Shown here in pieces: positions 888 through 59,515 of a stretch of 64,000 nt of DNA (its first letter is position 1; every line of letters starts with the position of its first letter). The position numbers and the translations under genes were made by a program. The notes below the pieces were generated by a model that ran no database searches, was not told where the DNA came from, and saw only the letters and a list, made by a program, of their open reading frames with translations. The DNA comes from a phage: sequence record PZ445447.1. One strand, given 5' to 3'.

Positions 888-1652
888 TTGAAATTTATCT
901 ACAAAGAACACTACCACAAAGGTGTTGTGTGGAGCCTATTTGACGGATCTGGTGGTGCAGTCATTGACTGGGCAAAAGCTGGATATCTGTGCCTGTGCTT
1001 TAACGCAGAAGGTGCTGACCACGGCAGTTATGCAGAGGTGATCACCGATCATCCAAATATTCACTATGTAGATTATTGGATTGATCCATGGTTCCCTCAG
1101 GAAACTTTCTGCATGTACCCAGCTCCGGACTTTGTTCTTGCATTTCCTCCGTGCACCCACTTAGCGGTGTCAGGTGCTGCACACTTTAAGAAGAAGCTGG
1201 CTAAGGACCCGTTGATCCAGATTAATGCTGTAAAGGATGCTCGGGTTGCAGAAGAGTTGGGAGAGATTTACGATTGCCCGTGGCATGTAGAGAATCCTGT
1301 GGGTGTTATGTCCACACTGTGGCGCAAACCTGATTACCGTTTTCACCCTTCTGACTATGGCGGGTATTTACCGGAGGATGATGTAAACCCCTGGTTTCCT
1401 GAATTTATAGCTCCACGTGATGCCTATCCAAAAATAACTTGCGGCTGGATAGGTAATGGATTTATAATCCCGGCCACAAAACCTGTCCCGCAAATAGTTG
1501 ACGCGGTTAGCGGGTATTCCATGCAACACGCCAAGCTGGGTGGAAAGAGTGCAAGAACGAAGATGATCCGAAGCCTCACACCACGTGGCTGGGCAAAAGC
1601 CGTATTCTTAGCAAACGAGCCTGTAGTAAGGAGCAGAATTAATGGGAAGTAA
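888..1652 (+). CDS. putative DNA (cytosine-5)-methyltransferase-like protein
   Basis: Motifs LFDGSGG (motif I-like), PPCTHLAVSG (PC motif IV-like), VENPVG (ENV motif VI-like); start moved to in-frame TTG after AGGAGA RBS because the ORF-track start lies inside the terminator. Confidence 0.5.
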   Translation: MKFIYKEHYHKGVVWSLFDGSGGAVIDWAKAGYLCLCFNAEGADHGSYAEVITDHPNIHYVDYWIDPWFPQETFCMYPAPDFVLAFPPCTHLAVSGAAHFKKKLAKDPLIQINAVKDARVAEELGEIYDCPWHVENPVGVMSTLWRKPDYRFHPSDYGGYLPEDDVNPWFPEFIAPRDAYPKITCGWIGNGFIIPATKPVPQIVDAVSGYSMQHAKLGGKSARTKMIRSLTPRGWAKAVFLANEPVVRSRINGK

Positions 1653-3720
1653 ATTTATGGCATCTGCATACAACCGTTTCGGTGAGCCAAACCCGAAAGC
1701 AACTAAGTATAAAAGTGGGGGAAGTGTGAAACGAGACTATCGTGATGAAAAAGAGGTTGAAACTGTAGAGACTGTTTTAGAAAATACTAAAATTGTCCCT
1801 GTTCCACAACAAAATATCGGTCTGATGGCTGCACAATATTTTGGTGTGCGATCAGCATTGTCTCAAGAAGACGGTGTGACAGTTACTGCAACATATTTCC
1901 CATATTACGACCGCTACGGAAATCTGTCAGGTTTCAAAAAGCGTGACTGGACGATTCCTAAAGAGCAAAGGGGCCATTTCTCAGTTGTTGGCATAGTAAA
2001 GGCTAACTCTCAGATGTTTGGGCAAAAGCTGTGTGCATCTTCCAACAACCGTAAGCAAATTAACGTTTGTGAGGGGGAAGGTGATGTTATTGCAGCATGG
2101 CAGGCTGCATATCAGATACAAGTAAAAGGGATTCTCACCAACGCTAAAGCCCCGGCAAAGGTGAAGCAGTGGGCTAAAGAGGTCCAGGACGGGATCGATG
2201 CAGTTATCAACGGTGGTGATCTGGCAGGAAAACCCTGCCTACCTTTTGTTGGAATTAACTGTGGATGTGCAAACGCAGTAGATACTTTTGCAAACAATGA
2301 GAAGTTTATCCGTAGCTATGGAACAGTTGTGCTGGCAATGGATAACGATGCAGCTAACGAGGTAGAGAAGCAAAAACACGTCATTAAAGGTGTCGAGGCC
2401 ACGCACAATATCGCAGCATTTTTGATGGCTGATAACGTTTACCACGTAGAATACCCTGGTGAAGTAAACGACCCTGACGGTGTAAAAGATATCCGAGACA
2501 TGCTGAAGGCTAAAAAGCTGGAAGATATTGTCAACATGTTCCGGCATCCTGTTAAATATGTGCCTGATGCTGTGTCGGATTTAGAAGACTTCTCTATCGA
2601 GTCTTTGCGGAAAAAGACTTCCAACGGGGTAGATATCAGCGCAGAGTTCCCAAAACTGCAAAAAATGCTAAAAGGCTTGCACAAAGGTACACTCGTAATG
2701 CTTACAGGCCCATCAGGTGGCGGTAAAACAACCGTAGCTAAAAAACTGGAACACTGTATTGCAAGATACCTAATGGACCCGACATGCCCGAAGGCTGATG
2801 ACTATGAAGAGGATGATCGTCTATGTATGATCCATCTTGAGGAGGACCCAGAGGAAGCAATTAACTCCTTGTATGCAAACCAGTTAGGGTTTGATGTTAA
2901 AGAGTTTGTTGAAGATCCTAGCCAGTTTTTAACTGATCAAGAACACGCAGAGATTCATCAGTCATGGGCAAAAGCTGGAAAAATCAAAGTGTTCAAACAT
3001 TTCGGGTCTATTCCGGTGGATGAGTTGATTACCAAGCTTAAGCAAATGGTTTGCCTGTACCATTGCCGTTATATTGTGCTGGATCACCTGTCCATGGTAA
3101 TTTCAGGGCTTAATGTTAAGGATGAGCGAAAAGAACTGGACATGGCTATGACCCAACTGGCTGCGTTTTGTAAGCAGTTTAATGTGTTTATCTTGGTGAT
3201 CGCTCACCTCAAACGTACAGAGATTGTGCCTCCTAAGGACAAGGATGGTAACCCGTTACCTTTCTGGTATCCTGTGCGAAAAGAGAATTTGCGAGGATCG
3301 GCTGGGCTTGAACAGTTGAGTTGGGTAGTTATAGGTGTCGAGGCCGAAGAAATGGTGGATCGTTCTCGTGGGCGTGTCCGTCTGGTAGGTCTTAAAAACC
3401 GTCCAGCAAAAACTTTAGGTATTGCTGACACTTTAGTTATGGACCCGCACACAGGTAAGTTCCATGATGCCAGTAACTGGTACTGGGACAAAGAAATGCA
3501 AATGTTTACAGACGGAGAAGGTGGGGAGGTTGTTTGGAGACCTCAGGCTATGTTTGAGGATCAGGAGCATGCAGTTGTAGAAACACCTATGGGCAAGGTT
3601 GTGGCTGATAAGGTTGTAACTCCTACTGTTAAGCCTGTTGACACGCAGGAAGACCTCCAGTACGATGATCCGTCCTCTGACCATGTTCCTGGTTTTGAGG
3701 ATGATGAAACACCTTTTTAA
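1642..3720 (+). CDS. DNA primase-helicase (TOPRIM primase domain plus DnaB/T7 gp4-like helicase)
   Basis: TOPRIM motifs CEGEGD and VLAMDNDAAN; Walker A GPSGGGKTT; Walker B-like IVLDHLS; 692 aa. Confidence 0.8.
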   Translation: MGSKFMASAYNRFGEPNPKATKYKSGGSVKRDYRDEKEVETVETVLENTKIVPVPQQNIGLMAAQYFGVRSALSQEDGVTVTATYFPYYDRYGNLSGFKKRDWTIPKEQRGHFSVVGIVKANSQMFGQKLCASSNNRKQINVCEGEGDVIAAWQAAYQIQVKGILTNAKAPAKVKQWAKEVQDGIDAVINGGDLAGKPCLPFVGINCGCANAVDTFANNEKFIRSYGTVVLAMDNDAANEVEKQKHVIKGVEATHNIAAFLMADNVYHVEYPGEVNDPDGVKDIRDMLKAKKLEDIVNMFRHPVKYVPDAVSDLEDFSIESLRKKTSNGVDISAEFPKLQKMLKGLHKGTLVMLTGPSGGGKTTVAKKLEHCIARYLMDPTCPKADDYEEDDRLCMIHLEEDPEEAINSLYANQLGFDVKEFVEDPSQFLTDQEHAEIHQSWAKAGKIKVFKHFGSIPVDELITKLKQMVCLYHCRYIVLDHLSMVISGLNVKDERKELDMAMTQLAAFCKQFNVFILVIAHLKRTEIVPPKDKDGNPLPFWYPVRKENLRGSAGLEQLSWVVIGVEAEEMVDRSRGRVRLVGLKNRPAKTLGIADTLVMDPHTGKFHDASNWYWDKEMQMFTDGEGGEVVWRPQAMFEDQEHAVVETPMGKVVADKVVTPTVKPVDTQEDLQYDDPSSDHVPGFEDDETPF

Positions 3721-9747: not shown

Positions 9748-11018
9748 TGAGCGTTATTCAACAATTCGCTAACCCGATGAATCCGCGTGAAACTGTTTTA
9801 CTGGCTCACGGCATGATTAAACGCGTCAGCATCAAGCCTATCAAAGGTGCTGATCCTACAACAGGTATTAAAACCACTGTGTGGCAAGGTAAGAAAATTG
9901 AGTCCAGCCACACCATCTCTTTACTGATTTCTGAACTGGATTCCTCTGATAACCTGCTTCAAGGTGGTGAAGAAGTCTGGATCAGCATGGGTGATAAACT
10001 GCTTAAACCGGGTCATCAAGACTCTGTCTCTGTTAAGATTGATGACAAGTGGGAAACCGTAACGCCAGGATGGATCGTAAATATCCCTTTGAAGGCAAAC
10101 GAGCATAACGGTAAGACCTACTACAAGGGCTCACTGGCTAAGATGGTTAAGCTGGGTGCAGGAGAGGCTCCAGCAGCGACTCAGCAGCAAAAACAGCAAC
10201 AAGGTGCACAATCACAAGGCCAGAAGCAGAAACCTCAGCAGAATGCCAATCAGGACGTTTTACGCATCTATGGCGATGTGACTCAGATTGTTGGCAACGT
10301 GGTTACTGTTAATGACCACAAGATTGGCGAAGGTGCTATGGTTGTCACTGATGAGCAGCTTAAAGACCTGGTGGTAGGTGGTCGTGTTGCAGCCATTGTT
10401 GACAAAGACACCGGAAACATTATCAGTGGTTTCAAAGCCTACCCACCTAAGGCAGAGAACGGCACTCAAGGCTCTGGTGGCAAGCGTAAATCCTCTTACG
10501 ACCCTATTGGTGTGGAGACGGGGCATAGCATCAATGCGTTGCAGATCATCCTGGATCGCGGGTTTAAGGTGGACGACCCACTAGGCGTGGCTAAAACACT
10601 GCACGTAGTCACCATTGAGCTTAAGAAAGAGTATGCTCAAGCCACCAACCGAACTGAAGATGAGGTAGGTGCCAGTGTCGGTAATGCGGTGTTGAACGCT
10701 TGTCGCCGTATTGACAAGAAAACGAAAGTTGATGATTTTGCAGTGGCAATTACTGCAGAAGCAAAAGATGTCTTGACTAATCTGGCTGAGCCGTTGTACG
10801 ATTGGATCAAGAACGGTGCTGGGTCCACTGACCATCAAGAACCTCAAGCTGCCAAACAGGAAGCTGCTTCACAGCAAAATACTGTAGACGCTCCTCCTGT
10901 AAATGACGAGGAAGATGACCCAATGGATCAGAATCCAGCACAGTATGACTTCTGTGATGACATACCTTTCGCTCCGGTGGGTTTGCAATATGGCAAAAGT
11001 AGAATCCACGCATTGTAA
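9747..11018 (+). CDS. putative single-stranded DNA-binding protein
   Basis: Q-rich flexible linker between two folded regions; acidic tail ending DFCDDIPF (bacterial SSB-tip-like) followed by 15 further residues; ATGA-coupled start. Confidence 0.5.
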
Positions 11019-11613
11019 GAGGTGCATCAAGTGTGGAGAGGTGAAAAACCTCTCCGAGTTCTACAAACATCCAAAGATGTCTGACGGTCATCTTAATAAG
11101 TGCAAAGAGTGTTGCAAGAAGGCCAGCAGGGAGGCTGACCAATTTTCCCACGACTCTTCAGAAAAAGGTGTGATCCGCGTGTTGTACAAGACTCAAAAGT
11201 GCAACAGTAAGAAGAGAGGTCACCCACCTCCGACTTACACCAAAAAAGAGTTTAAGGAGTGGCTATACCTAAACGGTTACAAAGAGTTGTATGATCAATG
11301 GGTAGCCAGCGGATACGACAAAAGGAAAAAGCCTTCTTGTGACAGGATAGATGATTTCAAAGGGTACTCTTTTGATAATATCCGTTTAACGACTTGGGGA
11401 GAAAATAAAGACAAGCAGACAGAGGATATTCTGTTACATAGAAGCACCAGCGGTAGACGGTGCAAAAATGTAAGGAGGTTGGACATGAATGGTAACGTTC
11501 TTAAAGAATGGGTATCCCACAATTCTTGCCGAAGAGAAACAGGGATATGTGTTGATTACTACATTCATGAAAAAATTCCAGCTCCCGATGGATACCTCTA
11601 TGAATACTTCTAA
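10990..11613 (+). CDS. putative HNH-type homing endonuclease
   Basis: N-terminal CxxC..CxxC zinc-binding segment; [18 protein letters not shown] motif; overlaps 3' end of SSB-like gene in another frame. Confidence 0.5.
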
Positions 11614-23823: not shown

Positions 23824-23961
23824 ATGAAAACTTTCAACGCAACAGCCTCGACAATTGGTTATATTATTACAGTACAGGCCGTGGATCTGGTAGCAGCAGC
23901 AAACAAGATTAAAAAGATGATTCCGCCAGGTAGTGAATTTTCCGTTTGGGAAGTAAAATAA
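23824..23961 (+). CDS. hypothetical small protein (45 aa)
   Basis: ATG after AATGAGGGTAA leader; frame verified codon by codon to TAA at 23959. Confidence 0.4.
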   Translation: MKTFNATASTIGYIITVQAVDLVAAANKIKKMIPPGSEFSVWEVK

Positions 23962-26761: not shown

Positions 26762-26780
26762 TTTTTTAACTGAATTATCA

Positions 26781-26805
26781 AGGGGCTTAGGCCCCTTTCT
26801 TTTTG
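26781..26805 (+). terminator. rho-independent terminator
   Basis: AGGGGC-TTAG-GCCCCT then TTCTTTTTG. Confidence 0.7.
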
Positions 26806-26806
26806 T

Positions 26807-29273
26807 CTGCTCTTCCCCCTACCATAAACGGCCCTACCTGGCAAGTGGAATAATTGACGAGCCATCAATCCCACACACTGTACAAACATACATATAAAAT
26901 AACTATTGCATAATTTTTCATTGTGTGGTAGCAGGGCCATTTTTACACGTTTTTCCTTCCAAAATTGCACGTAATGCAGCATTTGCACAAAATTTAACCT
27001 GATGCATATATTCAATAGCTTGTCAACAACTAAAAATCTTTATAAGTCATACACTTACATAACTACAAAAGCGTTTTCTACGTGAAAAATCGAGTATAAC
27101 TATAGCCGCCAGATCTCAGAATTTACGTACGCTCGCCATTCTATAGCCTGCTAAGCATTTATTCCAACCATAGAATAACGGAATAGTCAATACCTGCATA
27201 AAATAATTATTCGTGTAAACTGCATAACATAAATCGGCCCAGGTGTCAACATTTTTCGTAAACAGTCTGGAATTGTCACGTTAGGTTACCATAAGCAGAG
27301 AAATCTTCAGTCGTCTAATGTTTACTGTACGTTACTATATTAACTGAAATCATTAGATGACTAATAGAAAGATAAGAAATAATTAACAATACAATTATTT
27401 TATCTGTAACAATAAGGCAACTATGCAAACGAATGGCATGGCGCGACGGAGTCGCGACATAATATAAAAGCAGTAACCATCACCCCCGTGATAGTTTGTC
27501 TGCAAACTATTAATCAGATCATAGTTGCCTTGTATTTAGTTAATCATGACATAACAAGCAAGGCAACTATAGATCTGCTAATAGTTGCCCTGCTTTTATA
27601 TTATGTCATGCTAATTATAATCAGTGCGATTATTGTCATGTATAATTATTGTCATGCAAACGAATGGCATGGCTGATTATCGGTGTGTAAACAGTCAATC
27701 ATGTAAATGGTTAGCATGTGAACAATCAGGAATGTAAACAATCCAGTGTGTAAACTAATAGGTGTGTAAAAGTGTCATGTTGTGTCAGTTAGGTCACATT
27801 ATGTCAGACAAGTTTTTCTCCTCTTTGTCAAGTGCTGCATGAAAAATTTACAAGCTTGTATGGTAGCATTTTTGCGGCCCTGTTTACATTCAGGAGTGTA
27901 TGTATAATCCTTGGTGTGTGGGCGTTTAGACGTCTGGACGGTAAGAAGTCTGCAGGTTAATATCTAATCTATCGGCTGCTAACTATATCCCACACAAATA
28001 GTAAGAAATATAATTGTTATGTGCGTAAACAGTAACCCATGTTATCAATCCCTGTATGTATCGCCAGTGGTGCGCATAATGGGTATTATGTTAAATTGCC
28101 CGTAATGATAAAGGTTCTCACAATGATAGGTATTCTCATTCACCCTCACAAAATAGATTGCAAATGTTGTGCCACTGTGTGAACGGCCTCACCTATTAAT
28201 TTGCCTCACTGCCTCGATATTTGAGAATTATTATAAGAATGAGAAGTATTCCCATTTCGTCCGCCTGGCAGCACTCCAGTCGCTACGGCTCATGACAGGG
28301 CAGCACTCCTGTAGGTCAGGTCAAAATCGTGGTAGAATTGGGCCTGTTCAGATATTTCTGGCTGACTCTTCAGGTCTGTGTGGGAAAAGCCAACCTCTCC
28401 GGCGGGGCAGGGGGTCATGACGGGAAAATTGCAGGTCAATTAAAAAATTTACGTGGTGTATGAAGCGCTCTTCAGGTAAGGCAGGTATTAGAGGATGAAA
28501 CCCTCTTCAGGCAATGATATTTGTGGGTGTGATATTTGCTGGAAAGCCAGATATGACGGGACTCCCGGCGGGGATGGGGTAGTACAGACAGGGAAAATAT
28601 GGGGATGTAGTTGGGTAAATTGATCAGGCAGGTAGAGTATGGATTATGTTACAGGTATGTTAAATATGGAGGTTGAATATCTGTAAGATTTGTGTGTAAA
28701 ATCAAAGACTTAAGTGGTGTTGTGGTATTTTCTATAAATAATTCAAGTTTAATAGGTAATATTTGTCTCTATCCACTTTGTGTGGTAAACAGATTCAGAT
28801 GAAATTGGTTTACAAGTGTATACATAATATACAAATTAAAGATACAAGAAACCCCCCTCCCCTTCGGCTACCATTCACCTTTTCCTCTGACTGGTACTTA
28901 AACACTTATTCAGACTCTTCAGGTTATCACCCATATATCATATGGCAGTGACTGGTGTCCTCCGGCCCCTCTTTCGTCACCCGTCCGCTTCGCCATGCTA
29001 ATGCCATAGCCAATGGTTCGGTTGTTCACCCTGTTCACTCAGGTGTATCTCCATACCCCTTCAAACCGAAGAGAACAGAAAACCCGAATTACTCGGTAAA
29101 AGAAAAGAGAAGAACTTAATTTTATCAAGATAGGCAAGAATGTCAAGGCATGACTGCTCACTAAACAAGCAAACAGTCATGTGTGGGAGGTAAGTGATTG
29201 TGGTTGTAGGAAATTTAGTTGAAAGATGTGTTATAGGTGCTTCCAGCACTTTAGCCGGGTAGCTAATTGTGTG
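26807..29273. other. large non-coding, repeat-rich region between convergent gene blocks (candidate origin, packaging or regulatory hub)
   Basis: No ORF with credible RBS; AT-rich; inverted repeats around 27425-27610 (ATAGTTGCC in alternating orientation); five TGTAAA(C) repeats 27680-27770; CTCTTCAGG four times 28366-28930. Confidence 0.5.
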
Positions 29274-37400: not shown

Positions 37401-37925
37401 CTACAAATGGCAACTGAGGGTGTCAAGAAAATTATCCCGTTCTTTCTCAGAGTTTTCATGGGTGTAGCTGAAAAACATATCGAGAATAACCTTATTGATA
37501 TATTCCAGCTCCTCTGTGTTCAGATGCTTAGCAGGATCTACAATGACATCCCAAATATCATACAGACCACACTCATGATACCCATAACGCCACTCAATTG
37601 TCAAGCTGAGCGGCAAATCTTTACCGTCACAAACAACCTTCCATCTACATATGTTGGTATCTGGTCGTATCTGTGCACGGTACACCTGTACAAAATCCAA
37701 TTTGAATTTGAGGTACTCGTCATACAATTTAAGCACAAAGCTCTCGATTTGTGGAGACACTTTTGCAGCAAACTGTGCGTATTTGTACTTGCACTGGATG
37801 ATCTTTCTGCGTTTTGCAGTTAAATTTTTTGCCGCCAGTTGTTCTTCAGTGTATCTCCACCTACGATCAACAAACGCAACAGGGTCTTTGTCCCCATAGA
37901 GGTCTTCCCAGTTAATCAGAAGCAT
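37401..37925 (-). CDS. hypothetical protein
   Basis: GGAGGAG RBS; 174 aa. Confidence 0.6.
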   Translation of the reverse strand: MLLINWEDLYGDKDPVAFVDRRWRYTEEQLAAKNLTAKRRKIIQCKYKYAQFAAKVSPQIESFVLKLYDEYLKFKLDFVQVYRAQIRPDTNICRWKVVCDGKDLPLSLTIEWRYGYHECGLYDIWDVIVDPAKHLNTEELEYINKVILDMFFSYTHENSEKERDNFLDTLSCHL

Positions 37926-37930
37926 ACCTG

Positions 37931-38164
37931 TCACTCCTCCACAACTTCAAGGCCTTTACCGCCTCGCTCTGGCAGATTACTTAAAGATAGGTAATACATA
38001 TAATCAGGAGAGATCCTGCCAGACTCTGCACCTGCAGCTAGTAAATCCTTCCCTTTAACCAGGACAACATTCTCGTTTGCAGATAGCCGTTTTGCTTCCA
38101 CAATTTTACCAACACAGTCAACCAAGGAAGGGTACCCTAAATCTGTAAGAAATTTAACTTTCAT
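37931..38164 (-). CDS. small protein, paralog array member (family A)
   Basis: AGGAGG RBS; starts MKVKFLTDLGYPSLVD; ends ...GLEVVEE. Confidence 0.65.
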   Translation of the reverse strand: MKVKFLTDLGYPSLVDCVGKIVEAKRLSANENVVLVKGKDLLAAGAESGRISPDYMYYLSLSNLPERGGKGLEVVEE

Positions 38165-38203
38165 GCTACCTCCTGCTTCTACCGTCCCCGGTAAGATAAA
38201 TTA

Positions 38204-38602
38204 TTACTGAACAGAGCGCGGAGCTGGGAAGGATAACTCTTCTAAAGAGAAGATTTCATTCCCCACAATCCATGTTGCAGGATCATCTGGGTTGACTGGA
38301 TAGATAATCATCACCTCGTCAGTGTTACATACCCGCTTTTTACCTGTGGAGTCATCAGCAACCAGCATGCGCGGTTCTTCAGAAATGCACAGGTAGCCTC
38401 CTCGGCCCACTGTTCCTTCCACAGGATCTTGTCCTTTGATCACGATGATTATCTTCTCTCCTGAGGTGATATTACCTTGCACACTCACCGTTTGACCAAC
38501 TTTAGATGTGCCGAACTTGGTGGTTTCAAACATTAAATCTCGAATTACTGTTGCATAGTCTCCAGACACTTTCTTACCTTCTTTAGTGATCTCAATCTTC
38601 AT
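38204..38602 (-). CDS. hypothetical protein
   Basis: 132 aa; starts MKIEITKEG. Confidence 0.55.
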   Translation of the reverse strand: MKIEITKEGKKVSGDYATVIRDLMFETTKFGTSKVGQTVSVQGNITSGEKIIIVIKGQDPVEGTVGRGGYLCISEEPRMLVADDSTGKKRVCNTDEVMIIYPVNPDDPATWIVGNEIFSLEELSFPAPRSVQ

Positions 38603-38838
38603 ACACTGGGCTCCTTAAATGAATCTATGTAATCAATTAAATCCCAAGCATCCCTATGACCTGTCAGAGGGTATACTTCTCCAAGAGGGATCATAGCAAT
38701 AAGTCTATCAAAAACCCAAGCTGGACGCAACATTTTATGGTGATACTCCCACTCACCCTCTACAGATTTTTTCTGAGTAATCAGGATCTCTGTGTAGTGT
38801 TTCGCCTGTCTTGAGTAAATTGAAAATGACTTGTACAT
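38599..38838 (-). CDS. hypothetical protein
   Basis: ATG after AAGGGGGTCA RBS; in frame with ORF 38599-38865. Confidence 0.55.
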   Translation of the reverse strand: MYKSFSIYSRQAKHYTEILITQKKSVEGEWEYHHKMLRPAWVFDRLIAMIPLGEVYPLTGHRDAWDLIDYIDSFKEPSV

Positions 38839-38872
38839 AAATGACCCCCTTGTTGATAACAACAATACACAA

Positions 38873-39157
38873 CTACCAGGTTACTGTCAAGTAGGCAACC
38901 GTGTTATTTTTCTCTGGAGAGATGCCAACAACATCTACCTGCAGACCTCCTGCCCTCAAATCCCCAACAATATGCGGGAAGTAATCTGAGAGATGTGAGG
39001 GTAGATTTATCGAAAATCCGCATCCCAGAAAGCCTGCTAACGCTTTATTTTGTATCTCCCCTACAATCGCATCATAAATGGAGTTAAGCTCGTCAGGGAG
39101 CGTTACAGGACGTTTTAGCGCTAACTGGTGCAACTTGTCCTTAGCACTCATTTTCAT
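38873..39157 (-). CDS. hypothetical protein
   Basis: ATGA overlap with methyltransferase stop; in frame with ORF 38873-39226. Confidence 0.5.
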   Translation of the reverse strand: MKMSAKDKLHQLALKRPVTLPDELNSIYDAIVGEIQNKALAGFLGCGFSINLPSHLSDYFPHIVGDLRAGGLQVDVVGISPEKNNTVAYLTVTW

Positions 39158-39687
39158 TTCAAATCTGCCTCTGGTGGTGCCAACCACATAAATGGCGGCA
39201 AGTCTAGACGGTTTTTCTTGTCCCATACAAAATATGCATATGCCTGACCATCCGTTCTACCATTGGATTGGAATGACGGGCGCTTAGATATTGTGATCAC
39301 AGTGGTAGGTGCATTATCAAGCCACCATTCAAATCTGGCCTTGCTTTCCAGAAAATTAAGACGCAAAAGCATAATAACTACGTCGGCATCTTTCAACGCC
39401 TTGTCTACAAACTCACGAGCCAGACTGTATGGTGGGTTGGTGATAATACAGTCAACATGGTTGTATTCTGTATTCAGATAGTCAACACCTTCTTGGATTT
39501 CTCCCCATGCAGATCCTAACGGCATACGGGAGTAGAACACACCTGAGGCACTATTCCTGCAAGGCTCTAAGTAGGTCCAGTCTTCTGGGAACGGAATAAG
39601 GTCATACAGCCCTTCTGCACACCACTCCGGTGTTACATACTCATCGTAGGCGTTACGTTGTTCATCAGGTTTTCTAGCACAAGTCAT
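39154..39687 (-). CDS. DNA adenine (N6) methyltransferase, phage Dam-like
   Basis: Catalytic motif IV ITNPPYS; GGAGA RBS; 177 aa. Confidence 0.65.
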   Translation of the reverse strand: MTCARKPDEQRNAYDEYVTPEWCAEGLYDLIPFPEDWTYLEPCRNSASGVFYSRMPLGSAWGEIQEGVDYLNTEYNHVDCIITNPPYSLAREFVDKALKDADVVIMLLRLNFLESKARFEWWLDNAPTTVITISKRPSFQSNGRTDGQAYAYFVWDKKNRLDLPPFMWLAPPEADLK

Positions 39688-39738
39688 GCAAATCTCCAGA
39701 TCATAAAAGCCCTCCGAAGAGGGCTTTAGAATTAATGT

Positions 39739-40788
39739 TTAAGCTTCTTCGACAATTCCTGCACCCAGGATTTTTTCATTGAGCTCTTTTGCTGTTTTAA
39801 TAATATTGTCCACCAGACGCTTGCGCGTCTTATCTTTCACCTTAACCTCTTCACCGCCGTTCAGAGTAGTCTTCAATTGAGACAGAATATCCTGAAGTTC
39901 AACGACAGAGAATCTCTGCAGATCTTCTGAAGTAATCTCACTCAGGGCAATTCTGACAGTCTCGCCACTTTCCATCTGCAGATTCAGGAACACAGTGTGA
40001 ACATCACCTTTCGAACCACCCGCTTTTGCAGATTCAACAGCATGAACTAACTCATCTAAAGATGTGCACTGGTGAATCTCCGGAAGACCTGCTTCACCTA
40101 ACACGCCTTCTTCATCACCTTTTGCCAAAAGCTTTTTCGGTTTTTGTCCGTTCTGGATGCGTTGTATGTTGCCTTCATCCAGAATAATAGCTCCAGTGCG
40201 TGCTGCCAGCTCTTCTCCGTCCAACCACACTTCGCCACCAGCTGTGATGGATGCGATCTCATCTTCTGTCAGCACCCCACCGTAGTATTTTTCGATCAGG
40301 CGTTCAAAACGTTTTTTCCAGTAGCTGACCTGAGTATTCATGTTCACACCGTTACCATAAGTGCCACCTTGATAGTAGTGGAACATAAACTCTGTGTCCG
40401 GAGCCACAGTACGTTCTTTACAACCAAGCCATAAGATTGTTCCAGCAGAGCAGCACATCCCTTCAGCATGTGCAACAACGCTTGCCTGAGACTCGCGGAA
40501 TGCCTGCAGATAAGCCATTGCAATGTGCACGCAACCCCCAGGACTATTGATGATCACCCGAATGCTTTCTTCCGGCTGAGCCATACGGATCGTCTGCAGA
40601 CGAGACATATGATCTTGTAAGTCTTCCAAATCGTCGATATAAAGAACGTGGTCAACAACAGGTGTTGGGTAGCTGTATGTTTCCATAATACCACCCGGCA
40701 TACCAAACATTTTATTACTCATAGGTTCGAAACCGTTCTGTTTTTCTTTCATGCCGTGTACCATGGTGCTGCGAGGTGTTAAATTCAT
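39739..40788 (-). CDS. ClpP/S14-like serine peptidase with C-terminal extension
   Basis: INSPGGCVHIAMAY (ClpP INSPGG-like) and GMCCSAGTIL (catalytic Ser region); about 150 aa extra C-terminal helical domain. Confidence 0.65.
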   Translation of the reverse strand: MNLTPRSTMVHGMKEKQNGFEPMSNKMFGMPGGIMETYSYPTPVVDHVLYIDDLEDLQDHMSRLQTIRMAQPEESIRVIINSPGGCVHIAMAYLQAFRESQASVVAHAEGMCCSAGTILWLGCKERTVAPDTEFMFHYYQGGTYGNGVNMNTQVSYWKKRFERLIEKYYGGVLTEDEIASITAGGEVWLDGEELAARTGAIILDEGNIQRIQNGQKPKKLLAKGDEEGVLGEAGLPEIHQCTSLDELVHAVESAKAGGSKGDVHTVFLNLQMESGETVRIALSEITSEDLQRFSVVELQDILSQLKTTLNGGEEVKVKDKTRKRLVDNIIKTAKELNEKILGAGIVEEA

Positions 40789-40848
40789 GAGAAATCCTTA
40801 ATATTGGAAGTTGAAAGCTATTTATTTAAACCTGATTCACATTTACCT

Positions 40849-41160
40849 TTATTTAGCAATCACTAGGGAATACTTACGATTGTCAGAAGCATCACAGCTC
40901 AATGATTGCCAGTCTACCACATACCACGTATCATTGTCAACAATTACTTTATCGCCTGTTCTGTAGCAGGTGCTGCTTTCAATAATCCGAGACTCGATAA
41001 AGAATCTGTGTCGGCGCTCACGTAGCAACGCTAAGTTGATTATATTACCACCACTGTCCTTGATCCACACATTCTTGGATCCTTTATTTGCCAAAATTGT
41101 CTCGCCGTTATAGACAAACAGGCAGTATATTTTATTCAGTCTCTCTTGTATTGTAGCCAT
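40849..41160 (-). CDS. hypothetical protein
   Basis: AGGAGA RBS; own promoter 41191-41219. Confidence 0.6.
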   Translation of the reverse strand: MATIQERLNKIYCLFVYNGETILANKGSKNVWIKDSGGNIINLALLRERRHRFFIESRIIESSTCYRTGDKVIVDNDTWYVVDWQSLSCDASDNRKYSLVIAK

Positions 41161-41190
41161 ACTATCTCCTTCTACTTGTCTTGTCCGATA

Positions 41191-41219
41191 ATAATATCTA
41201 AATCTTACCTGTTTGTCAA
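41191..41219 (-). promoter_or_regulatory. sigma70-type promoter (minus strand)
   Basis: Minus-strand TTGACA, 17 nt spacer, TATTAT. Confidence 0.65.
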
Positions 41220-41263
41220 CAACTGTTTTAGATATTTAAGGGTGGAATAACCACCCTTCTGTA

Positions 41264-42052
41264 TTACTCGGAAACAGGGGTCCAAATATGATTTGCACGA
41301 TCCTCGATAAGATTGAGTGCAATCTGACGACCCAACCCGGAACGAACGACATCATCTGGACTATCAAAGCTGATCATTCCAACCTCAGGATCTGGATGGC
41401 GAGTAAAGAAATCCGTCACCCATGCAAGGCCAGATTTACCAGGGATGTCACGTTGGCTATTATCACCCATAATTACAAGGGTGGCTTGATCAGAGATCCT
41501 TGTGATAATTGACAACATTTCTTCAGGGTTAGTTTGCTGTGCCTCGTCAATCAGGACAAAGCATCGCTCATCGAAACTACGACCACGAATGCTTTCAACT
41601 TCACAAATCTCGATACGACTGTTCTGACCGTCTCCCAGCATTGCGGCAAAAGCACCTTTGCCAACACGGAGACAAATCGTGTCCATCATGCTTCGAAGAT
41701 AGGGCCACAGTTTCTGCATTGCATTTCCAGGTTTAAATCCTGAAGTCTTTCCTGTCTGAACGTAAGGGCGTGCAACAATGATCTTATCAATCTCGTTCTT
41801 ACGCAGAAGATCACCTGCATATGCAGATGCCATGAACGTCTTACCAGACCCAAACACACCGTTTACAATAATAATCTTACGTGACCCTAGATAATCAAGA
41901 TACTTTTGCTGCTTCTTGTTCATTGGTCGGAGAGCTGGAGCGGTGTGCTCTCTTTCGTCAGCAAATTTCTCAGCAGCCTTACGCAGGCGATCAGATTTTC
42001 TAGCCTCTCTAGCTTCATCACGCATGCGTTTTGTTTCTTTAGCTCGACCCAT
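41264..42052 (-). CDS. phoH: PhoH-like ATPase
   Basis: Walker A GVFGSGKTF; LIDEAQ; GDNSQRD; AAAGGAG RBS. Confidence 0.85.
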   Translation of the reverse strand: MGRAKETKRMRDEAREARKSDRLRKAAEKFADEREHTAPALRPMNKKQQKYLDYLGSRKIIIVNGVFGSGKTFMASAYAGDLLRKNEIDKIIVARPYVQTGKTSGFKPGNAMQKLWPYLRSMMDTICLRVGKGAFAAMLGDGQNSRIEICEVESIRGRSFDERCFVLIDEAQQTNPEEMLSIITRISDQATLVIMGDNSQRDIPGKSGLAWVTDFFTRHPDPEVGMISFDSPDDVVRSGLGRQIALNLIEDRANHIWTPVSE

Positions 42053-43265: not shown

Positions 43266-44471
43266 TCAGCAACCACAACTTCCGTAGTGCTTAACCCGTT
43301 CTATAACTTCCGCTTGCTTACCTTTATTGTAAGGACGGGAGTTTGGACTAGACAGGTACCCGGATACACGTCTGATCACACTGATCGTTCCCTCTTCATG
43401 GTTTCCACACTCTGGGCATACGAATCCCTTAGCTGTTGCACTGAACTCACCAGAGAAACCACACTTAAGACATTTATCCACAGGCTGGTTGATACCAAAA
43501 TACATAATGTGTTTATATCCGAAATCAACAAGAGCTTCCAAAGCATCTAAGTTGTTTTTCAGATTTGGTGTCTCTACGTATCCGATGTTGCCACCAGAGG
43601 ATATCATAGCAAAACCTTCTTCATACTCCCACTTATCAAAAGGAGAGCTATTGATCCATACTGGCTGATGGAAACTGTTGGTGAGATATTCATGCTCGTG
43701 CTTCAACACTTCAGGATATTCACGATCCAGACAGGTTGCAGCTTTATAGCATAGACTCTCAGAAGGGGTGCCGTACAAACTAAACGCTAGTCTACTTTTC
43801 TTCTTGTATCGCTCACAAGCATCTCTCATGTGCTGAAGTATTCCAAGAGCTAAAGCCTTGTCACCCTCTCTGCCCAAAATCTGACAGGTTTCATACACAC
43901 CAATATACCCAATACTGATGGAAGCGTACCCGTCATAGAAGAGTTTATCAATACTCTCTTCAGGATCCAGGCGAGCAAGAGCGCCTTCACACCACATGAT
44001 AGGGTTCTGCCCTGCCTTAGTGCCTTTCAGACGGTTAACCCTTACAAGGTGAGCTTCATATGCCAAATCCAGATACTCGTCAAGAACGGAAAAGAAATCA
44101 ACACCTTCCGTCTTAGCTTTTGCCGCAATCATTGGCAGGTTAAGACTAACAACACCCAAGTTGAATCTGCCGAGGTATTTCTCCTCACCTGTTTCCAAGT
44201 CATTGTATTTGCTAAGAAAACTCCGGCAACCCATGCTCGTTACTTTACCATCTGTCGAGCCTGTCACTTTACGATTTAGTGGAACAGAAACAAAGTCAGG
44301 ATAAATCCGCTCTGCAGAGCATTCCAGAGCTAATCGTTTCAAATCATAGTTAGGATCTCCAGGGTTCATGTTGACACCCTCTTCTAGGAAGAACAACACT
44401 TTAGGGAACACAGGTGTGATACGTTCTTCACCAAGACCCATTTTGTGGACTTTCAAGTAGTTTTTGGTAAT
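43266..44471 (-). CDS. nrdD: anaerobic ribonucleoside-triphosphate reductase, exon 2 (C-terminal part)
   Basis: C-terminal CxxC pairs and glycyl-radical-like RVSGYL; exon start placed right after intron terminal G (inferred). Confidence 0.7.
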   Translation of the reverse strand: MTKNYLKVHKMGLGEERITPVFPKVLFFLEEGVNMNPGDPNYDLKRLALECSAERIYPDFVSVPLNRKVTGSTDGKVTSMGCRSFLSKYNDLETGEEKYLGRFNLGVVSLNLPMIAAKAKTEGVDFFSVLDEYLDLAYEAHLVRVNRLKGTKAGQNPIMWCEGALARLDPEESIDKLFYDGYASISIGYIGVYETCQILGREGDKALALGILQHMRDACERYKKKSRLAFSLYGTPSESLCYKAATCLDREYPEVLKHEHEYLTNSFHQPVWINSSPFDKWEYEEGFAMISSGGNIGYVETPNLKNNLDALEALVDFGYKHIMYFGINQPVDKCLKCGFSGEFSATAKGFVCPECGNHEEGTISVIRRVSGYLSSPNSRPYNKGKQAEVIERVKHYGSCGC

Positions 44472-45325
44472 CATTCTACCAAAGACTGAGGTGTCCAGAC
44501 CTAAACTTAATGTGATGAATGGAGTCTGCTGTCTCCTCCCTGTGTTTCCACAGGGCCAGACTATCTCTTACTCTACTTCAATAAGATAATAACCCTTTAT
44601 TGTGAGATGCTTACCTTCGGCATTTCCTTCGATAGCCCTATGAACGTTACCTACGTTCAAATTTAAGGCTTTTGCACAGGCATAGAGTGAAGGATATTCA
44701 CCCACCAAGGTTTTACCTTTGTATGCCTGCACTTTCCTATAGCACTTACCTGGACAAAGTCCTGTTCGGAAAGCATGTCTCTTATTATCTTCCGGCAAAA
44801 CCCACTCTAGGTTAGACGGATGATCATTCAATGTATTGCCATCTTTATGATTCACTTCCCAGTTTTCAGGGTCTACTGGGACATCTGGCAAACAATACAA
44901 GGCAACAACCCTTGAGGTTTGGATTCGAATCTTTTTGCCTTTGTGGTTGAAAGAGTACATATAACGGCGTTTAACATGCTTGTTACCTTTTCCATAACCT
45001 CCCCACAATATTGGGTGCAGCATTCCACGTTTTCCGTATACGTTTCCAACCTCATCAATCACATAGTTTGATTCTTCACCATTAAGAATGATCTTTTTCA
45101 TAGAGCCTCTCCATTTCGAAGTTAGCATTTCAACTAACCCCTACACTACTTGGTTCAGAAATGTTTGTCAAGCATCTCTGCCTTTCGTTAGTCGTTACAA
45201 CCGTTCCAACTCCTGTAAGAACTAGTCACGGGATTGGCATAGCTTTCGCCTTAGCGTTCCCCGTTAGCCGGATTTACCGACCCCTCTTATGAGGTTAGGA
45301 GAGTTTTACAACGGCCAGTTTGTTA
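44472..45325 (-). mobile_element. group I intron interrupting nrdD, carrying an HNH homing endonuclease ORF
   Basis: Begins UAA right after exon 1; contains AACGGGGAAC and CAAUCCCGUGACUA elements resembling the T4 td/nrdD intron core as I recall it; ends AAUG before exon 2. Confidence 0.7.
44568..45128 (-). CDS. HNH homing endonuclease (intron-encoded)
   Basis: NHKDGNTLNDHPSNLEWV HNH motif; same strand as nrdD. Confidence 0.8.
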   Translation of the reverse strand: MLTSKWRGSMKKIILNGEESNYVIDEVGNVYGKRGMLHPILWGGYGKGNKHVKRRYMYSFNHKGKKIRIQTSRVVALYCLPDVPVDPENWEVNHKDGNTLNDHPSNLEWVLPEDNKRHAFRTGLCPGKCYRKVQAYKGKTLVGEYPSLYACAKALNLNVGNVHRAIEGNAEGKHLTIKGYYLIEVE

Positions 45326-46186
45326 ACCGTTGACAGAAGTTAACGTATTGATTTGATAGAGCAAAGTCTGCATGCTGTCAAATACGTCTTTATCTGTCAT
45401 TTGCATTGCAACAGTCTCAGCATCTGGCAACCAATGTTCCTGGCAAAATTTAAGGTTCTTCTCATAGGTCGCTTCAGCATACTGTGCCAGATAATGATCA
45501 ATATGGCTCATAGTCTGACCACCATATTGAGCACTAGCTACTGCACTAGAGATTTGGCTAAGGATTGTTGTTGCAACCCCTATTGACTTCGGCTTACTGA
45601 CATGGGCGTTACCAATGTTGAATCCGTTTTCCAACATATCTGGATAATTTACCAAACAACAGTTTGTTAACGGACTGATCAAGTAGTCAAGATCATGCAC
45701 ATGGATGAAGCCCCTATTGTGCTCTTCTGAGACACGGTCTGGCAGGATCTGTGTTGATGCAAGGTGTTTGCTAAGGATGCCTGCAAGCAGGTCACGATGA
45801 GTGTGTACATGATTGGTAGGCTTATTTGCGTTTTCTTTTGTAAATTCATCACAAGTTCGATCCAAGAAGCCACTAATATCTGCAAGCAGTTTTCCACCTG
45901 CCTCTCTGTTATTATCTCTTGTCTGTCTATACTGGATGTATTCTCTGGCTGCACATTTTAAACCCATATCCATAAGAGCGTCTTCAACAAGGATATGGAT
46001 ATTTTTTACAGAGATCGTGCACTGATCGGTTGGTAGATTGTTAGCAACAACTTCATTAACCGCGCAGGCGATCCGGTAAGCTTCTTCTTCAGTATGTCCA
46101 GACTCAAGTAAGGCGGACTCTGCCGCCTTGATCACCTTAATTCCGTTATAGAACTCTTCTCTACCGTCCCGTTTTACAACTTTCAC
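45326..46186 (-). CDS. nrdD: anaerobic ribonucleoside-triphosphate reductase, exon 1 (N-terminal part)
   Basis: ATP-cone-like N-terminus MKVVKRDGREEFYNGIKV; ORF ends ...TSVNG with stop at intron start. Confidence 0.7.
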
Positions 46187-53310: not shown

Positions 53311-53769
53311 TTAGAAGTTTGTTTTTACACGTCCCTTTTCATCAACCTCGTTGTTGGCTAGAAGCGTTACAAAGTCTGTGAAACGGACATGAAGAACTCT
53401 TTTCTTATCAAGGTATCCTAAAGCCACCCCTGAGAAATTTAGCATCAAAGGGGCTAAAGAAGCTCTGGCACTGAAATGCTGTTGTTCTACCCTTCCAACA
53501 CCCTTAGTGTAGGATGGGTTAAGATTGTAAGTTCTGAATCCCAGTTTTGTTGGAGCTTTAGAATTAAAAACAACTTTATAGCGTTTCTTACTCAACTTAT
53601 GCTCCAGGATAAGCATTCCCTTATCACCCTTGATGAGTTGAAAATCTGTAAAGTGTTCTTTTAAGACAAAAGGTAGTGCCAGCCCCATCGCCTGCCCCCT
53701 TTGTACCGCTGTCTCACCAAAAGCTTTTGCATCAGTAAGTTCTTTGGTCAAGTCTATGCTTTTGATCAT
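53311..53769 (-). CDS. hypothetical protein
   Basis: ORF track; 152 aa. Confidence 0.5.
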   Translation of the reverse strand: MIKSIDLTKELTDAKAFGETAVQRGQAMGLALPFVLKEHFTDFQLIKGDKGMLILEHKLSKKRYKVVFNSKAPTKLGFRTYNLNPSYTKGVGRVEQQHFSARASLAPLMLNFSGVALGYLDKKRVLHVRFTDFVTLLANNEVDEKGRVKTNF

Positions 53770-54550
53770 ACCTAGTCTCCAAAATGTATTGTAGTTCTTT
53801 CTTACCTATACTCTTCATTCCAGCAGTCTTACCTGCTTCTTCTTGAAAAGAAGAATAGCATTCAGCAAACACTCTGTCAACACCGTCGACTAAAGATTTT
53901 ATGAAATATGTCGATTCTTCAGATTTTGGATCATCATCCCCCAATACTTTTCCAGCATTATACCCAACACGTCTTACACAGAAGTCGTAGTCATCTGGAG
54001 TGCTAAAAGAAAATAACTTATTCTCTCCAATCTCTACAGGATCCCTGTTGCACGCCTTTTTCTCCCAAATTTGGAAAACACACGGCACGTCATAAGGTTT
54101 GCCATTAAGTAGAAACGAGTTCTTAGGGCACCTTTCACTGTAGACAAGGTGCATCGACATGTCCAGTTTGTTTGCAAAAAATATTTTTTCAAATGTCCGT
54201 GGCAAGATGAAGGCTATAGCCCCTCCAAGCTCTAGCAATGATGCACAATGGTTAAAGAATTTGCAAGCTAAAGATGAATTCTTGCCAAATGGTGGGTTAC
54301 CTATGAAGACATCTGCCTTGGGATGCACCTCCAAGAAGTTTGCCTGAATGCACGGTGCTGGTCCTTCAAATTCAGGATCTGGTACTAGATCGTAAGACAG
54401 TATCTCTGAAAATAGTTTTGAAAAAGAACCCCTTCCAGCAGAAGGCTCAACGTATGCACAATTTCCATACTTATCTTTTACTTTACCAACAAGATATTCT
54501 GCATACTCAGGGTTTGTGTAATATTTGTCGTTGGACTCTTTCTTGCTCAA
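53732..54550 (-). CDS. DNA methyltransferase (N6-adenine or N4-cytosine type)
   Basis: Motif I VEPSAGRGSF and motif IV FIGNPPFG; TTG start after GGAGG RBS (no in-frame ATG before the motifs). Confidence 0.6.
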   Translation of the reverse strand: MSKKESNDKYYTNPEYAEYLVGKVKDKYGNCAYVEPSAGRGSFSKLFSEILSYDLVPDPEFEGPAPCIQANFLEVHPKADVFIGNPPFGKNSSLACKFFNHCASLLELGGAIAFILPRTFEKIFFANKLDMSMHLVYSERCPKNSFLLNGKPYDVPCVFQIWEKKACNRDPVEIGENKLFSFSTPDDYDFCVRRVGYNAGKVLGDDDPKSEESTYFIKSLVDGVDRVFAECYSSFQEEAGKTAGMKSIGKKELQYILETRYDQKHRLDQRTY

Positions 54551-58767: not shown

Positions 58768-59061
58768 TCAAGACTTTTTAGTCTTTCTTGGAGAGCTTTT
58801 TGTTGATCTTTTCCTTTTGTGGTAGATTCCAAGTGCAGCGTTTTCTTGGGCGCACGTTTTAACAGTTCTCAGACAAGAACTTTCAGCTTTAGGCAGGTTT
58901 AACTCCCACCAACCAAGCCAGTAAAGTTCTGATTCAGACAACTGCTCAGATTCAGCCTTCCGATACAAGGCTTGCATACCTCTGATGATATCGTCCAGAG
59001 GTGTATCGAATACAAAAGCTGTCTTATCGAATTTCTCTTTTACAGGTCTCTTAGCCATCAA
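58768..59061 (-). CDS. hypothetical protein
   Basis: ORF track; basic C-terminal tail. Confidence 0.5.
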   Translation of the reverse strand: MMAKRPVKEKFDKTAFVFDTPLDDIIRGMQALYRKAESEQLSESELYWLGWWELNLPKAESSCLRTVKTCAQENAALGIYHKRKRSTKSSPRKTKKS

Positions 59062-59515
59062 GGTAACCCTCTATCCACGAAAAGTCAGTCTTCCATTCTG
59101 GAACTTTACTAAGCTCACGCCACTCTGCAAAGCAGTCTCGGTAATACGCCTCTGCCATACTCTTGGTGATCTTATTCACCTTAGCCAACTGATTAACTGC
59201 CTGAGCATACTTTCCACGGATATTTGCTAACCCAGGATGCACCGATGTGTGACAATCCGGGCACAGTGCTATCAGTCCGACAAGCCGGATCACTCCCTCT
59301 TCGAAAGTGTAAAGTTCATGACACTCCACTGGGTGTTTGCTGCCTTTACCGCCGCACACCTCACAAGTGTAGTTGGCTTCTCTATAGCACTTCTTACGTA
59401 TCTTATCCCACTCACTCTTCTTCACAGCGTTTCGGAGGTTATTATACCAAGCTGTTTCTGGGATCAGTTGCACAATAAGCCTGCGTTCAGACTTCATTAA
59501 ACGTCCGTCTTCCAC
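59051..59515 (-). CDS. hypothetical zinc-binding protein (possible HNH-like nuclease)
   Basis: CEVCGG...HPVECHE...CPDCH; GTG start after GAGGGAG. Confidence 0.4.
   Translation of the reverse strand: MEDGRLMKSERRLIVQLIPETAWYNNLRNAVKKSEWDKIRKKCYREANYTCEVCGGKGSKHPVECHELYTFEEGVIRLVGLIALCPDCHTSVHPGLANIRGKYAQAVNQLAKVNKITKSMAEAYYRDCFAEWRELSKVPEWKTDFSWIEGYLDG

Follow-up and report, generated by a model that had tools for sequence, protein, structure and literature searches.

A putative minimal GATC adenine methyltransferase among the four core methyltransferase genes of the Vequintavirus MaxBurger

The 64-kb stretch of phage DNA analysed here (the window; record PZ445447.1) carries three methyltransferase genes, the second of which encodes a putative N6 adenine methyltransferase of only 177 amino acids (aa) with an NPPY motif. 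Except for a single base, the window corresponds to positions 66025-130024 of MZ501093.1, the genome of Escherichia phage MaxBurger (Bas54 of the BASEL collection, Vequintavirus); at window position 23877 the window has a G and MZ501093.1 an A. A megablast search with window positions 38000-42000, which surround the gene of the 177-aa enzyme, returned a 100% match to MaxBurger and about 120 further rV5-like genomes that are 90-99% identical. The other two window genes encode a short C5-cytosine methyltransferase (the C5 enzyme) and a second adenine methyltransferase with an NPPF motif (the NPPF enzyme). All three open reading frames (ORFs) are present where the initial annotation had placed them and match coding sequences of MZ501093.1 to the base, although that annotation had left unstated that both adenine methyltransferase genes lie on the minus strand (Table 1). 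Since the three genes are already annotated in the deposited genome, their presence was known before. The proposed number of three methyltransferases holds for the window but is too low for the phage: a fourth methyltransferase gene, bas54_0070, was found just outside the window, so MaxBurger has four.

Table 1. Methyltransferase genes of MaxBurger and further features discussed in the text. Positions refer to the window unless another record is named.
Feature	Annotation	Position	Strand	Details
bas54_0070	Fourth methyltransferase gene	MZ501093.1 64323-65648		441 aa; ~380 bp upstream of the window start
bas54_0074	GenBank: Dcm-like C5 cytosine methyltransferase	888-1652	+	254 aa; TTG start
bas54_0170	GenBank: putative N6 adenine methyltransferase	39154-39687	-	177 aa; NPPY at residues 84-87
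bas54_0191	GenBank: putative N6 adenine methyltransferase	53732-54550	-	272 aa; TTG start; GNPPFG at residues 84-89
bas54_0190	Function-unknown gene	53311-53769	-	152 aa; 38-nt overlap with the 3' end of the NPPF gene
bas54_0165	Putative glycosidase	37401-37925	-	From annotation
Primase/helicase gene		1642-3720		
Class III anaerobic ribonucleotide reductase gene	Annotated as two joined pieces	43266-45973	-	
Homing endonuclease gene in the ribonucleotide reductase gene		44568-45128		Within an intron-like insert
Further homing endonuclease genes	Annotated	10990-11613; 59051-59497		
Region without annotated gene		26762-29273		~2.5 kb

The three window proteins match the PHROG families phrog_757 (C5 enzyme, 7e-87), phrog_799 (177-aa enzyme, 5e-67) and phrog_5172 (NPPF enzyme, 1e-128), all far beyond chance; phrog_5172 is labelled 'unknown function' in PHROGs. 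Pfam yielded sub-threshold matches only (EcoRI_methylase, Dam and Eco57I for the two adenine enzymes, none relevant for the C5 enzyme), no NCBIfam family passed the threshold for these proteins, and direct sequence searches against PDB chains gave nothing meaningful. Profile searches against the PDB recovered weak matches to M.TaqI and DNMT3B only. On alignment, the catalytic motifs are nonetheless conserved across diverse homologues of all three enzymes. Proteins at least 90% identical to the 177-aa, C5 and NPPF enzymes were found in 119, 117 and 121 of 122 related records, respectively. This conservation marks the window enzymes as core genes with some benefit in nature, and all four methyltransferase genes are core to the genus. 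The public collection also includes about 20 to 40 records labelled 'Campylobacter phage' (MG0656xx series, with C. jejuni as host) that match these E. coli Vequintavirus genes at 97-99% identity, which suggests mislabelled or contaminant genomes.

The 177-aa protein is 100% identical over its full length to bas51_0176 of Bas51 (phage WalterGehring, MZ501111), for which both the activity and the role as a retron trigger have already been published. Bas51 mutants that escape Retron-Asa1 and Retron-Squ1 map to an N6 adenine methyltransferase, and engineered D69G, D79G or T83P substitutions in this enzyme abolish retron defence (2025 PLoS Biology, PMC12548924). All three residues are present in bas54_0170, and the combination D69, D79 and T83 occurs in bas51_0176 alone among the four Bas51 methyltransferases; the other three carry Q/A/I, C/G/E and F/A/I. 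The two genes also share their context, between a ClpP-like protease gene and small unknown genes. The only difference between the two cases is thus the phage genome around the enzyme, which has 140.7 kb and 703 GATC sites in Bas51 and 136.3 kb and 692 GATC sites in MaxBurger.

Nanopore sequencing of Bas51 virion DNA revealed a near-complete loss of N6-methyladenine (m6A) at GATC in the T83P mutant (PMC12548924). According to the source data of that study, whose methylation calls cover 6mA only, wild-type Bas51 has 1405 methylated adenines in GATC, 509 in GTAC and 576 in other contexts, as compared to 35, 511 and 349 in T83P (PMC12548924). The 703 GATC sites of Bas51 contain 1406 adenines and its 258 GTAC sites 516; therefore, both motifs are 99-100% methylated in the wild-type phage. 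Conversely, the 35 GATC adenines still called in T83P indicate that host Dam alone modifies only ~2.5% of the phage GATC adenines. The extensive self-methylation that the initial annotation had proposed is thereby borne out for adenine in Bas51. By analogy with the identical protein, the MaxBurger enzyme probably has the same GATC activity. In addition to its GATC sites, the MaxBurger genome contains 242 GTAC and 228 CCWGG sites, and the window accounts for 362 GATC, 127 GTAC and 129 CCWGG sites. Dam-type resistance to ClaI has been described for a relative, the Pectobacterium phage CB7 (Certrevirus; PMC7344957).

The published work on Bas51 further reported that the methyltransferase is toxic when expressed in E. 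coli, and that an R87* mutation in a putative glycosidase gene of Bas51 likewise relieved Retron-Asa1 defence (PMC12548924). The putative glycosidase gene bas54_0165 of MaxBurger is the orthologue of bas51_0171, which has an arginine at residue 87; it is located ~1.2 kb downstream of the gene for the 177-aa enzyme and is transcribed in the same direction.

The sequence of the 177-aa protein features the linear motif order X, I, IV of gamma-class adenine methyltransferases. Motif X comprises D15-x-Y17-x-T19-P20 (YVTP at residues 17-20), and motif IV reads T83-N84-P85-P86-Y87, with D69 and D79 as conserved acidic residues. Motif I is degenerate (L40-E41-P42-C-R-N-S-A-S-G49, that is, CRNSASG instead of CxGxG). 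In the family alignment, the D-x-Y-x-TP, EP and TNPP signatures are invariant across diverse homologues, and relatives of 160-227 aa conserve R11, D15-x-Y17-x-T19-P20, E41-P42, D69 and T83-N-P-P, together with a set of C-terminal residues (R109, R118, R136-P, D146, Y150 and W155). The family, which has relatives in 544 phage records, matches M.TaqI as a profile over residues 21-110 of the latter, the segment that contains motifs X-I-IV (E 2e-4). The protein ends ~90 residues past NPPY, all of which belong to the catalytic core, and thus has no C-terminal target-recognition domain (TRD).

Previously, the 177-aa enzyme had been described as Dam-like. This is correct for its function, as the identical Bas51 protein is needed for GATC m6A in virion DNA, but not for its family, given the gamma-type motif order and the missing TRD. 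The Dam proteins of E. coli and T4 (alpha class, PF02086) share its chemistry and target, m6A at GATC. However, they have the order I-TRD-IV with DPPY where the phage enzyme has X-I-IV with NPPY, the 177-aa protein is less than two-thirds of their size, and it has no match to PF02086 at E <=1. It is a functional analogue of Dam that stands outside the E. coli/T4 Dam family. Closer in build are the small phage 'Dam' proteins of the HP1 and Stx-phage type (PF05869 and TIGR01712), which are likewise phage-borne, TRD-less of similar size (~165-180 aa) and GATC-specific. Nevertheless, the 177-aa protein matches both families below threshold (19.2 bits against a cut-off of 28.1 for PF05869, over query residues 69-143, and 16.1 bits against 97.05 for TIGR01712), and just 11 of 27 members of its own family reach E <=0.01 to these small phage 'Dam' families. 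phrog_799 is a family separate from PF05869/TIGR01712. The M.TaqI and Eco57I-type enzymes of the gamma class share the order X, I, IV (NPPY/F) with both phage adenine enzymes, although the Pfam Eco57I matches of the latter are far below threshold. They differ in the C-terminal TRD, which comprises ~180 aa in M.TaqI, is lacking in the 177-aa enzyme and could correspond to ~100 aa in the NPPF enzyme.

Sequence motifs of the NPPF enzyme follow the same gamma-class order X, I, IV: D8-x-x-Y11-T12 (within YYTNP, residues 10-14), E35-P-S-A-G-x-G-x-F43 (EPSAGRGSF), D54 and G84-N-P-P-F-G89. Across 792 homologues of ~250-290 aa, D8, T12, the E35-F43 motif, D54 and G84-G89 are invariant, and further conserved residues are found in the C-terminal part. 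PF26055 is a precomputed family on these homologues. An hhalign comparison aligned the family of the 177-aa enzyme with the NPPF family over 148 columns (probability 97.6%, E 4e-12), which shows that the two families are homologous throughout the catalytic core; the NPPF enzyme consists of this core with ~100 extra residues at the C-terminus. This C-terminal module extends only ~100 aa past the catalytic core and does not amount to a TRD of the M.TaqI kind. In its AlphaFold2 model (mean predicted local distance difference test score, pLDDT, 92), the core resembles both gamma-class DNA methyltransferases and RNA methyltransferases that form m6A or N2-methylguanosine (m2G).

The resemblance of the predicted core raises the alternative that the NPPF enzyme is an RNA m6A (or m2G) methyltransferase that acts on host or phage rRNA or tRNA and does not methylate DNA at all. 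Some sources label its homologues 'predicted RNA methylase', one homologue matches PF00398 (RrnaAD), and the enzyme itself has no above-threshold match to a DNA methyltransferase family in Pfam or NCBIfam. We nevertheless regard an RNA substrate as improbable, because several observations argue for DNA: the homology over 148 columns is to a proven GATC DNA enzyme; the N-terminal D-x-x-YT-(N)P and EPSAGxGxF motifs fit motifs X and I of gamma-class DNA methyltransferases; and beyond the core only DNA methyltransferases align with the model, as M.BseCI, MmeI, CamA and M.TaqI cover 227-250 of its 272 residues whereas RNA methyltransferases cover only the ~150-residue core. Furthermore, bacterial homologues adjoin insertion sequence elements and a type I restriction-modification (RM) operon, and Bas51 has one DNA specificity, GTAC, to which no enzyme has been assigned. 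Thus, motifs and predicted structure together indicate that the NPPF enzyme is probably a DNA m6A methyltransferase.

The GTAC mark of Bas51 does not depend on the 177-aa enzyme, since the number of methylated GTAC adenines is virtually the same in the wild type (509) and in T83P (511), and it was not attributed to any enzyme in the original study (PMC12548924). Searching the literature for a phage enzyme that makes GTAC m6A yielded no assignment, and the original rV5 paper makes no mention of methyltransferases or restriction. Enzymes with this specificity exist elsewhere. Chlorovirus M.CviQI and HpyAXII of H. pylori belong to GTAC-specific m6A systems that make the same mark; the phage differs from these in having no restriction partner. 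As E. coli K-12 is not known to possess a GTAC methyltransferase, the mark must come from a phage enzyme, and the writer is then either the NPPF enzyme or bas54_0070.

bas54_0070 is a beta-class enzyme (PF01555, 1.5e-42) related to the Mod subunits of Type III systems; its PDB matches to Mod subunits, which include 6k0w and EcoP15I Mod, reach 1e-28 and 3e-24. It could write GTAC itself, in which case the NPPF enzyme would have another DNA motif within the 'other' class of methylated adenines or would be inactive under the tested conditions. In favour of such an assignment, bas54_0070 is the only one of the four methyltransferases with a strong match to a curated DNA methyltransferase family, it contains a large insert that could serve as a TRD, and 349 'other' m6A sites persist in T83P, so at least one further specificity may exist. 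However, Mod-type enzymes typically mark one strand of asymmetric 5-6 bp sites, and a 4-bp palindrome with both strands ~99% methylated does not follow that pattern. A one-strand 5-bp motif would be expected at ~275 sites in 140 kb, near the 349 'other' sites, and by this speculative arithmetic the 'other' class fits the Mod-like enzyme better. The NPPF enzyme, in turn, is homologous to the proven GATC enzyme, and GTAC differs from GATC in its two central bases only. Taken together, we consider GTAC methylation by bas54_0070 possible, if somewhat doubtful.

We lean slightly towards the NPPF enzyme as the GTAC writer, because it is a homologue of the GATC enzyme, because its small extra domain suits a 4-bp palindrome and because both strands of that palindrome are methylated. 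In a fuller form of this proposal, the NPPF enzyme would write every GTAC in Vequintavirus DNA, the NPPF and GATC enzymes would be diverged copies of a single minimal gamma-type core in which the C-terminal ~100-aa addition of the NPPF enzyme changes the specificity from GATC to GTAC, and the Mod-like enzyme would write a third motif among the ~350 'other' m6A sites; we regard this as plausible but tentative. If true, phrog_5172 would gain a function, and the two enzymes would constitute a compact natural pair for studying how tiny methyltransferases read 4-bp sites.

The C5 enzyme carries F-D-G-S-G as motif I, P-P-C89 as motif IV and E135-N-P as motif VI, corresponding to the FxGxG, Pro-Cys and ENV-glutamate signatures of C5 methyltransferases. 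In an alignment of 27 sequences, PPC (C89) and ENP (E135) are invariant, FDGSG is nearly so, and a C-terminal GGK...TKxIRSLTPRG block is strongly conserved; the TRD, located between motifs VIII and IX, is minimal. The MaxBurger protein has no match to PF00145 at E <=1, and a precomputed PF00145 match exists for just a few of its homologues. An AlphaFold2 model (pLDDT 89) nevertheless predicts a C5 methyltransferase fold: the top 31 PDB matches in Foldseek are DNMT3A/3B catalytic domains (E 1.5e-6 to 4e-5, template modeling score ~0.54), followed by the prophage C5 methyltransferase 3g7u. The DNMT3A/3B catalytic domains likewise have very small target-recognition regions, and they share motifs I (FxGxG), IV (PC) and VI (ENV-like ENP) with the phage enzyme, as do the classical C5 enzymes.

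The initial annotation had called the C5 enzyme unusually short. Classical bacterial C5 methyltransferases such as M.HhaI, M.HaeIII and EcoDcm (PF00145) are indeed larger, with ~330-470 aa versus 254 aa here. Within its own family, however, the enzyme is of normal or even long size: the family has ~3530 homologues in a large protein collection, of which the 120 listed measure 219-262 aa, and 1502 phage records contain it, Drexlerviridae and Dhillonvirus among them.

A member of this short C5 family is already a published retron trigger. In the Drexlerviridae phage K42, the 711-bp dcm gene sets off retron Ec86 through C5 methylation of the retron's multicopy single-stranded DNA (msDNA), on which 5-methylcytosine (5mC) was detected by liquid chromatography-mass spectrometry; the catalytic residues of K42 Dcm are C82, E128, K175 and K176, and the study also drew a comparison with DNMT3A (bioRxiv 10.1101/2023.08.16.553469). 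We found that a 236-aa Drexlerviridae protein in which C82, E128, K175 and K176 are all present shares 53% identity with the MaxBurger enzyme (E 3e-86). This relative bears the residue numbering of K42 Dcm, and activity is thus established for the family. The K42 enzyme, from a KarlJaspers-like phage and a trigger of Ec86/Eco1, thus belongs to the same short C5 family; its catalytic cysteine and glutamate are conserved in MaxBurger, whereas its second lysine, K176, is replaced by isoleucine (K182-I183). At 53% identity, the sequence specificity of the MaxBurger enzyme may differ as well. The motifs, the DNMT3-like predicted fold and this relative agree with the earlier assignment of a C5-cytosine-like enzyme, and by analogy we expect the MaxBurger protein to form 5mC.

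The initial annotation had interpreted the methyltransferases as an anti-restriction measure. As a broad claim, this is contradicted by plating data: the BASEL study described the Vequintavirinae as 'exceptionally susceptible' to RM systems, and MaxBurger plates with an efficiency of ~3e-4 to 9e-4 on EcoRI and 1e-3 to 6e-3 on EcoP1I; on EcoRV the value is <=1e-6, on EcoCFT_II it falls under the detection limit, and on EcoKI it is 0.1-0.5. Given such heavy restriction, any protection can only be site-specific, directed at GATC-, GTAC- and possibly CCWGG-type enzymes. Site-specific masking of this kind is compatible with the plating results, because none of the sites tested in BASEL contains GATC or GTAC.

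We propose the following account. The 177-aa enzyme would use S-adenosylmethionine to methylate the adenine of essentially every GATC in the replicating DNA of the phage during infection, a task for which host Dam by itself would be insufficient. Together with the GTAC mark, which like the GATC mark was observed in Bas51, and the 5mC that we expect, it would give the virion DNA a fixed methylation pattern, whose likeliest benefit may be the masking of these short sites from the restriction enzymes that read them, as opposed to general anti-restriction. The known cost would be that the methylation activity is sensed by retrons. We hold this account, of a minimal GATC enzyme that is one of four core methyltransferases, contributes to a fixed pattern and serves site-specific masking, to be very probable as a whole, with the adaptive role as a part that we infer. 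As such, the system may serve as a worked example of phage methyltransferases that fully mark short sites, give no general restriction protection and expose the phage to retron sensing.

Several points weigh against this account. All type II and type III systems that BASEL tested restrict MaxBurger strongly. The GATC activity in MaxBurger is carried over from the identical protein of a phage that is ~96-97% identical in the region. Bas51 methyltransferase mutants plate equally on the no-retron control and on the retron strains (PMC12548924), so the enzyme is dispensable on the laboratory K-12 host, and the only demonstrated effect of the NPPY enzyme is a cost, the triggering of Retron-Asa1 and Retron-Squ1. 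As for the NPPF enzyme, neither Pfam nor NCBIfam gave a match, sequence searches returned no relative of solved structure, and its core is structurally as close to the rRNA m6A methyltransferases METTL5 and PH1948 as to DNA enzymes; its DNA substrate is probable and its GTAC specificity a candidate assignment.

A further possibility is that the main reason for keeping the methyltransferases lies outside restriction evasion: full GATC methylation could prevent MutH from nicking unmethylated GATC, or the marks could help to regulate phage genes, to package the DNA or to distinguish self from non-self towards nucleases of the phage itself or of the host. This would be in line with the lack of protection from any RM system tested and with the 35 of 1406 GATC adenines in T83P, which show that host Dam alone leaves phage GATC nearly unmethylated. 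In the MutHLS pathway, progeny DNA made without the phage enzyme would be cuttable by MutH on both strands. The location of the genes in replication and nucleotide-metabolism modules points in the same direction: the stop of the C5 gene overlaps the start of the primase/helicase gene, the NPPF gene adjoins a DnaQ-like exonuclease gene, and ribonucleotide reductase genes belong to these modules. On the other hand, the equal plating of the Bas51 point mutants on the no-retron control implies no strong laboratory need for the enzyme in replication, repair or packaging, and no function of GTAC in the repair or regulatory systems of E. coli is known. The observed/expected ratio of GTAC in the genome is 0.47-0.59, an under-representation that looks like restriction-driven avoidance. 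We therefore think a mainly non-restriction purpose rather unlikely and favour site-specific masking. GATC, at 0.98-0.99 of its Markov expectation, is not avoided, and CTAG is under-represented like GTAC. Site statistics were also considered as a means of assigning motifs to enzymes, which they were unable to do; they show only that GATC is unavoided and that GTAC and CTAG are under-represented.

The small genes next to the methyltransferase genes contain no nuclease or other Pfam domain. As no neighbour has a recognisable nuclease domain, the description of the methyltransferases as orphans in the initial annotation stands as far as can be seen, and their gene contexts are consistent with it. 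The gene that overlaps the end of the NPPF gene, bas54_0190, encodes a protein of phrog_9938, a family of unknown function, with no Pfam match and only 5 representatives among 1.84 billion proteins in an exhaustive HMMER search.

In two unrelated bacteria, Poseidonibacter and Paracoccaceae, a conserved ~200-aa protein (phrog_6892) is encoded directly after the NPPF homologue; this protein is also paired with a 166-aa mini gamma-type methyltransferase in the T4-like cyanophages P-RSM4 (in which it is PRSM4_061) and S-WAM2; the contexts of other NPPF homologues in viral and giant-virus-like sequences were uninformative. The phrog_6892 gene lies beside mini gamma-type methyltransferase genes or shows translational coupling to them, and it occurs without an adjacent methyltransferase gene in Syn1 and ACG-2014f. 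Its product, for which Pfam, NCBIfam and PDB searches gave no match and no source offers a name, could be a nuclease or a specificity partner. A tblastn search with this protein matched no Vequintavirus record, and bas54_0190 showed one weak local BLASTP match to it (E 0.002 over 37 aa). We also considered the NPPF enzyme and bas54_0190 as an RM module and rejected this idea, as the HMMER search found the 5 relatives and no link to the phrog_6892 partner.

Outside the methyltransferase loci, the window contains ~2.5 kb without an annotated gene or an ORF of more than 101 aa, where blocks of plus- and minus-strand genes converge. Direct repeats occur in this region as an exact 20-mer (27423 and 27654) and as 34-nt copies (27505 and 27565), and positions 27456-27473 and 27590-27607 form an exact inverted repeat of 18 nt; an Rfam scan of the region gave no match at E <=0.1. 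An intron-like insert with a homing endonuclease gene splits the class III anaerobic ribonucleotide reductase gene, whose annotation joins two pieces, and two more homing endonuclease genes are annotated elsewhere in the window (Table 1).

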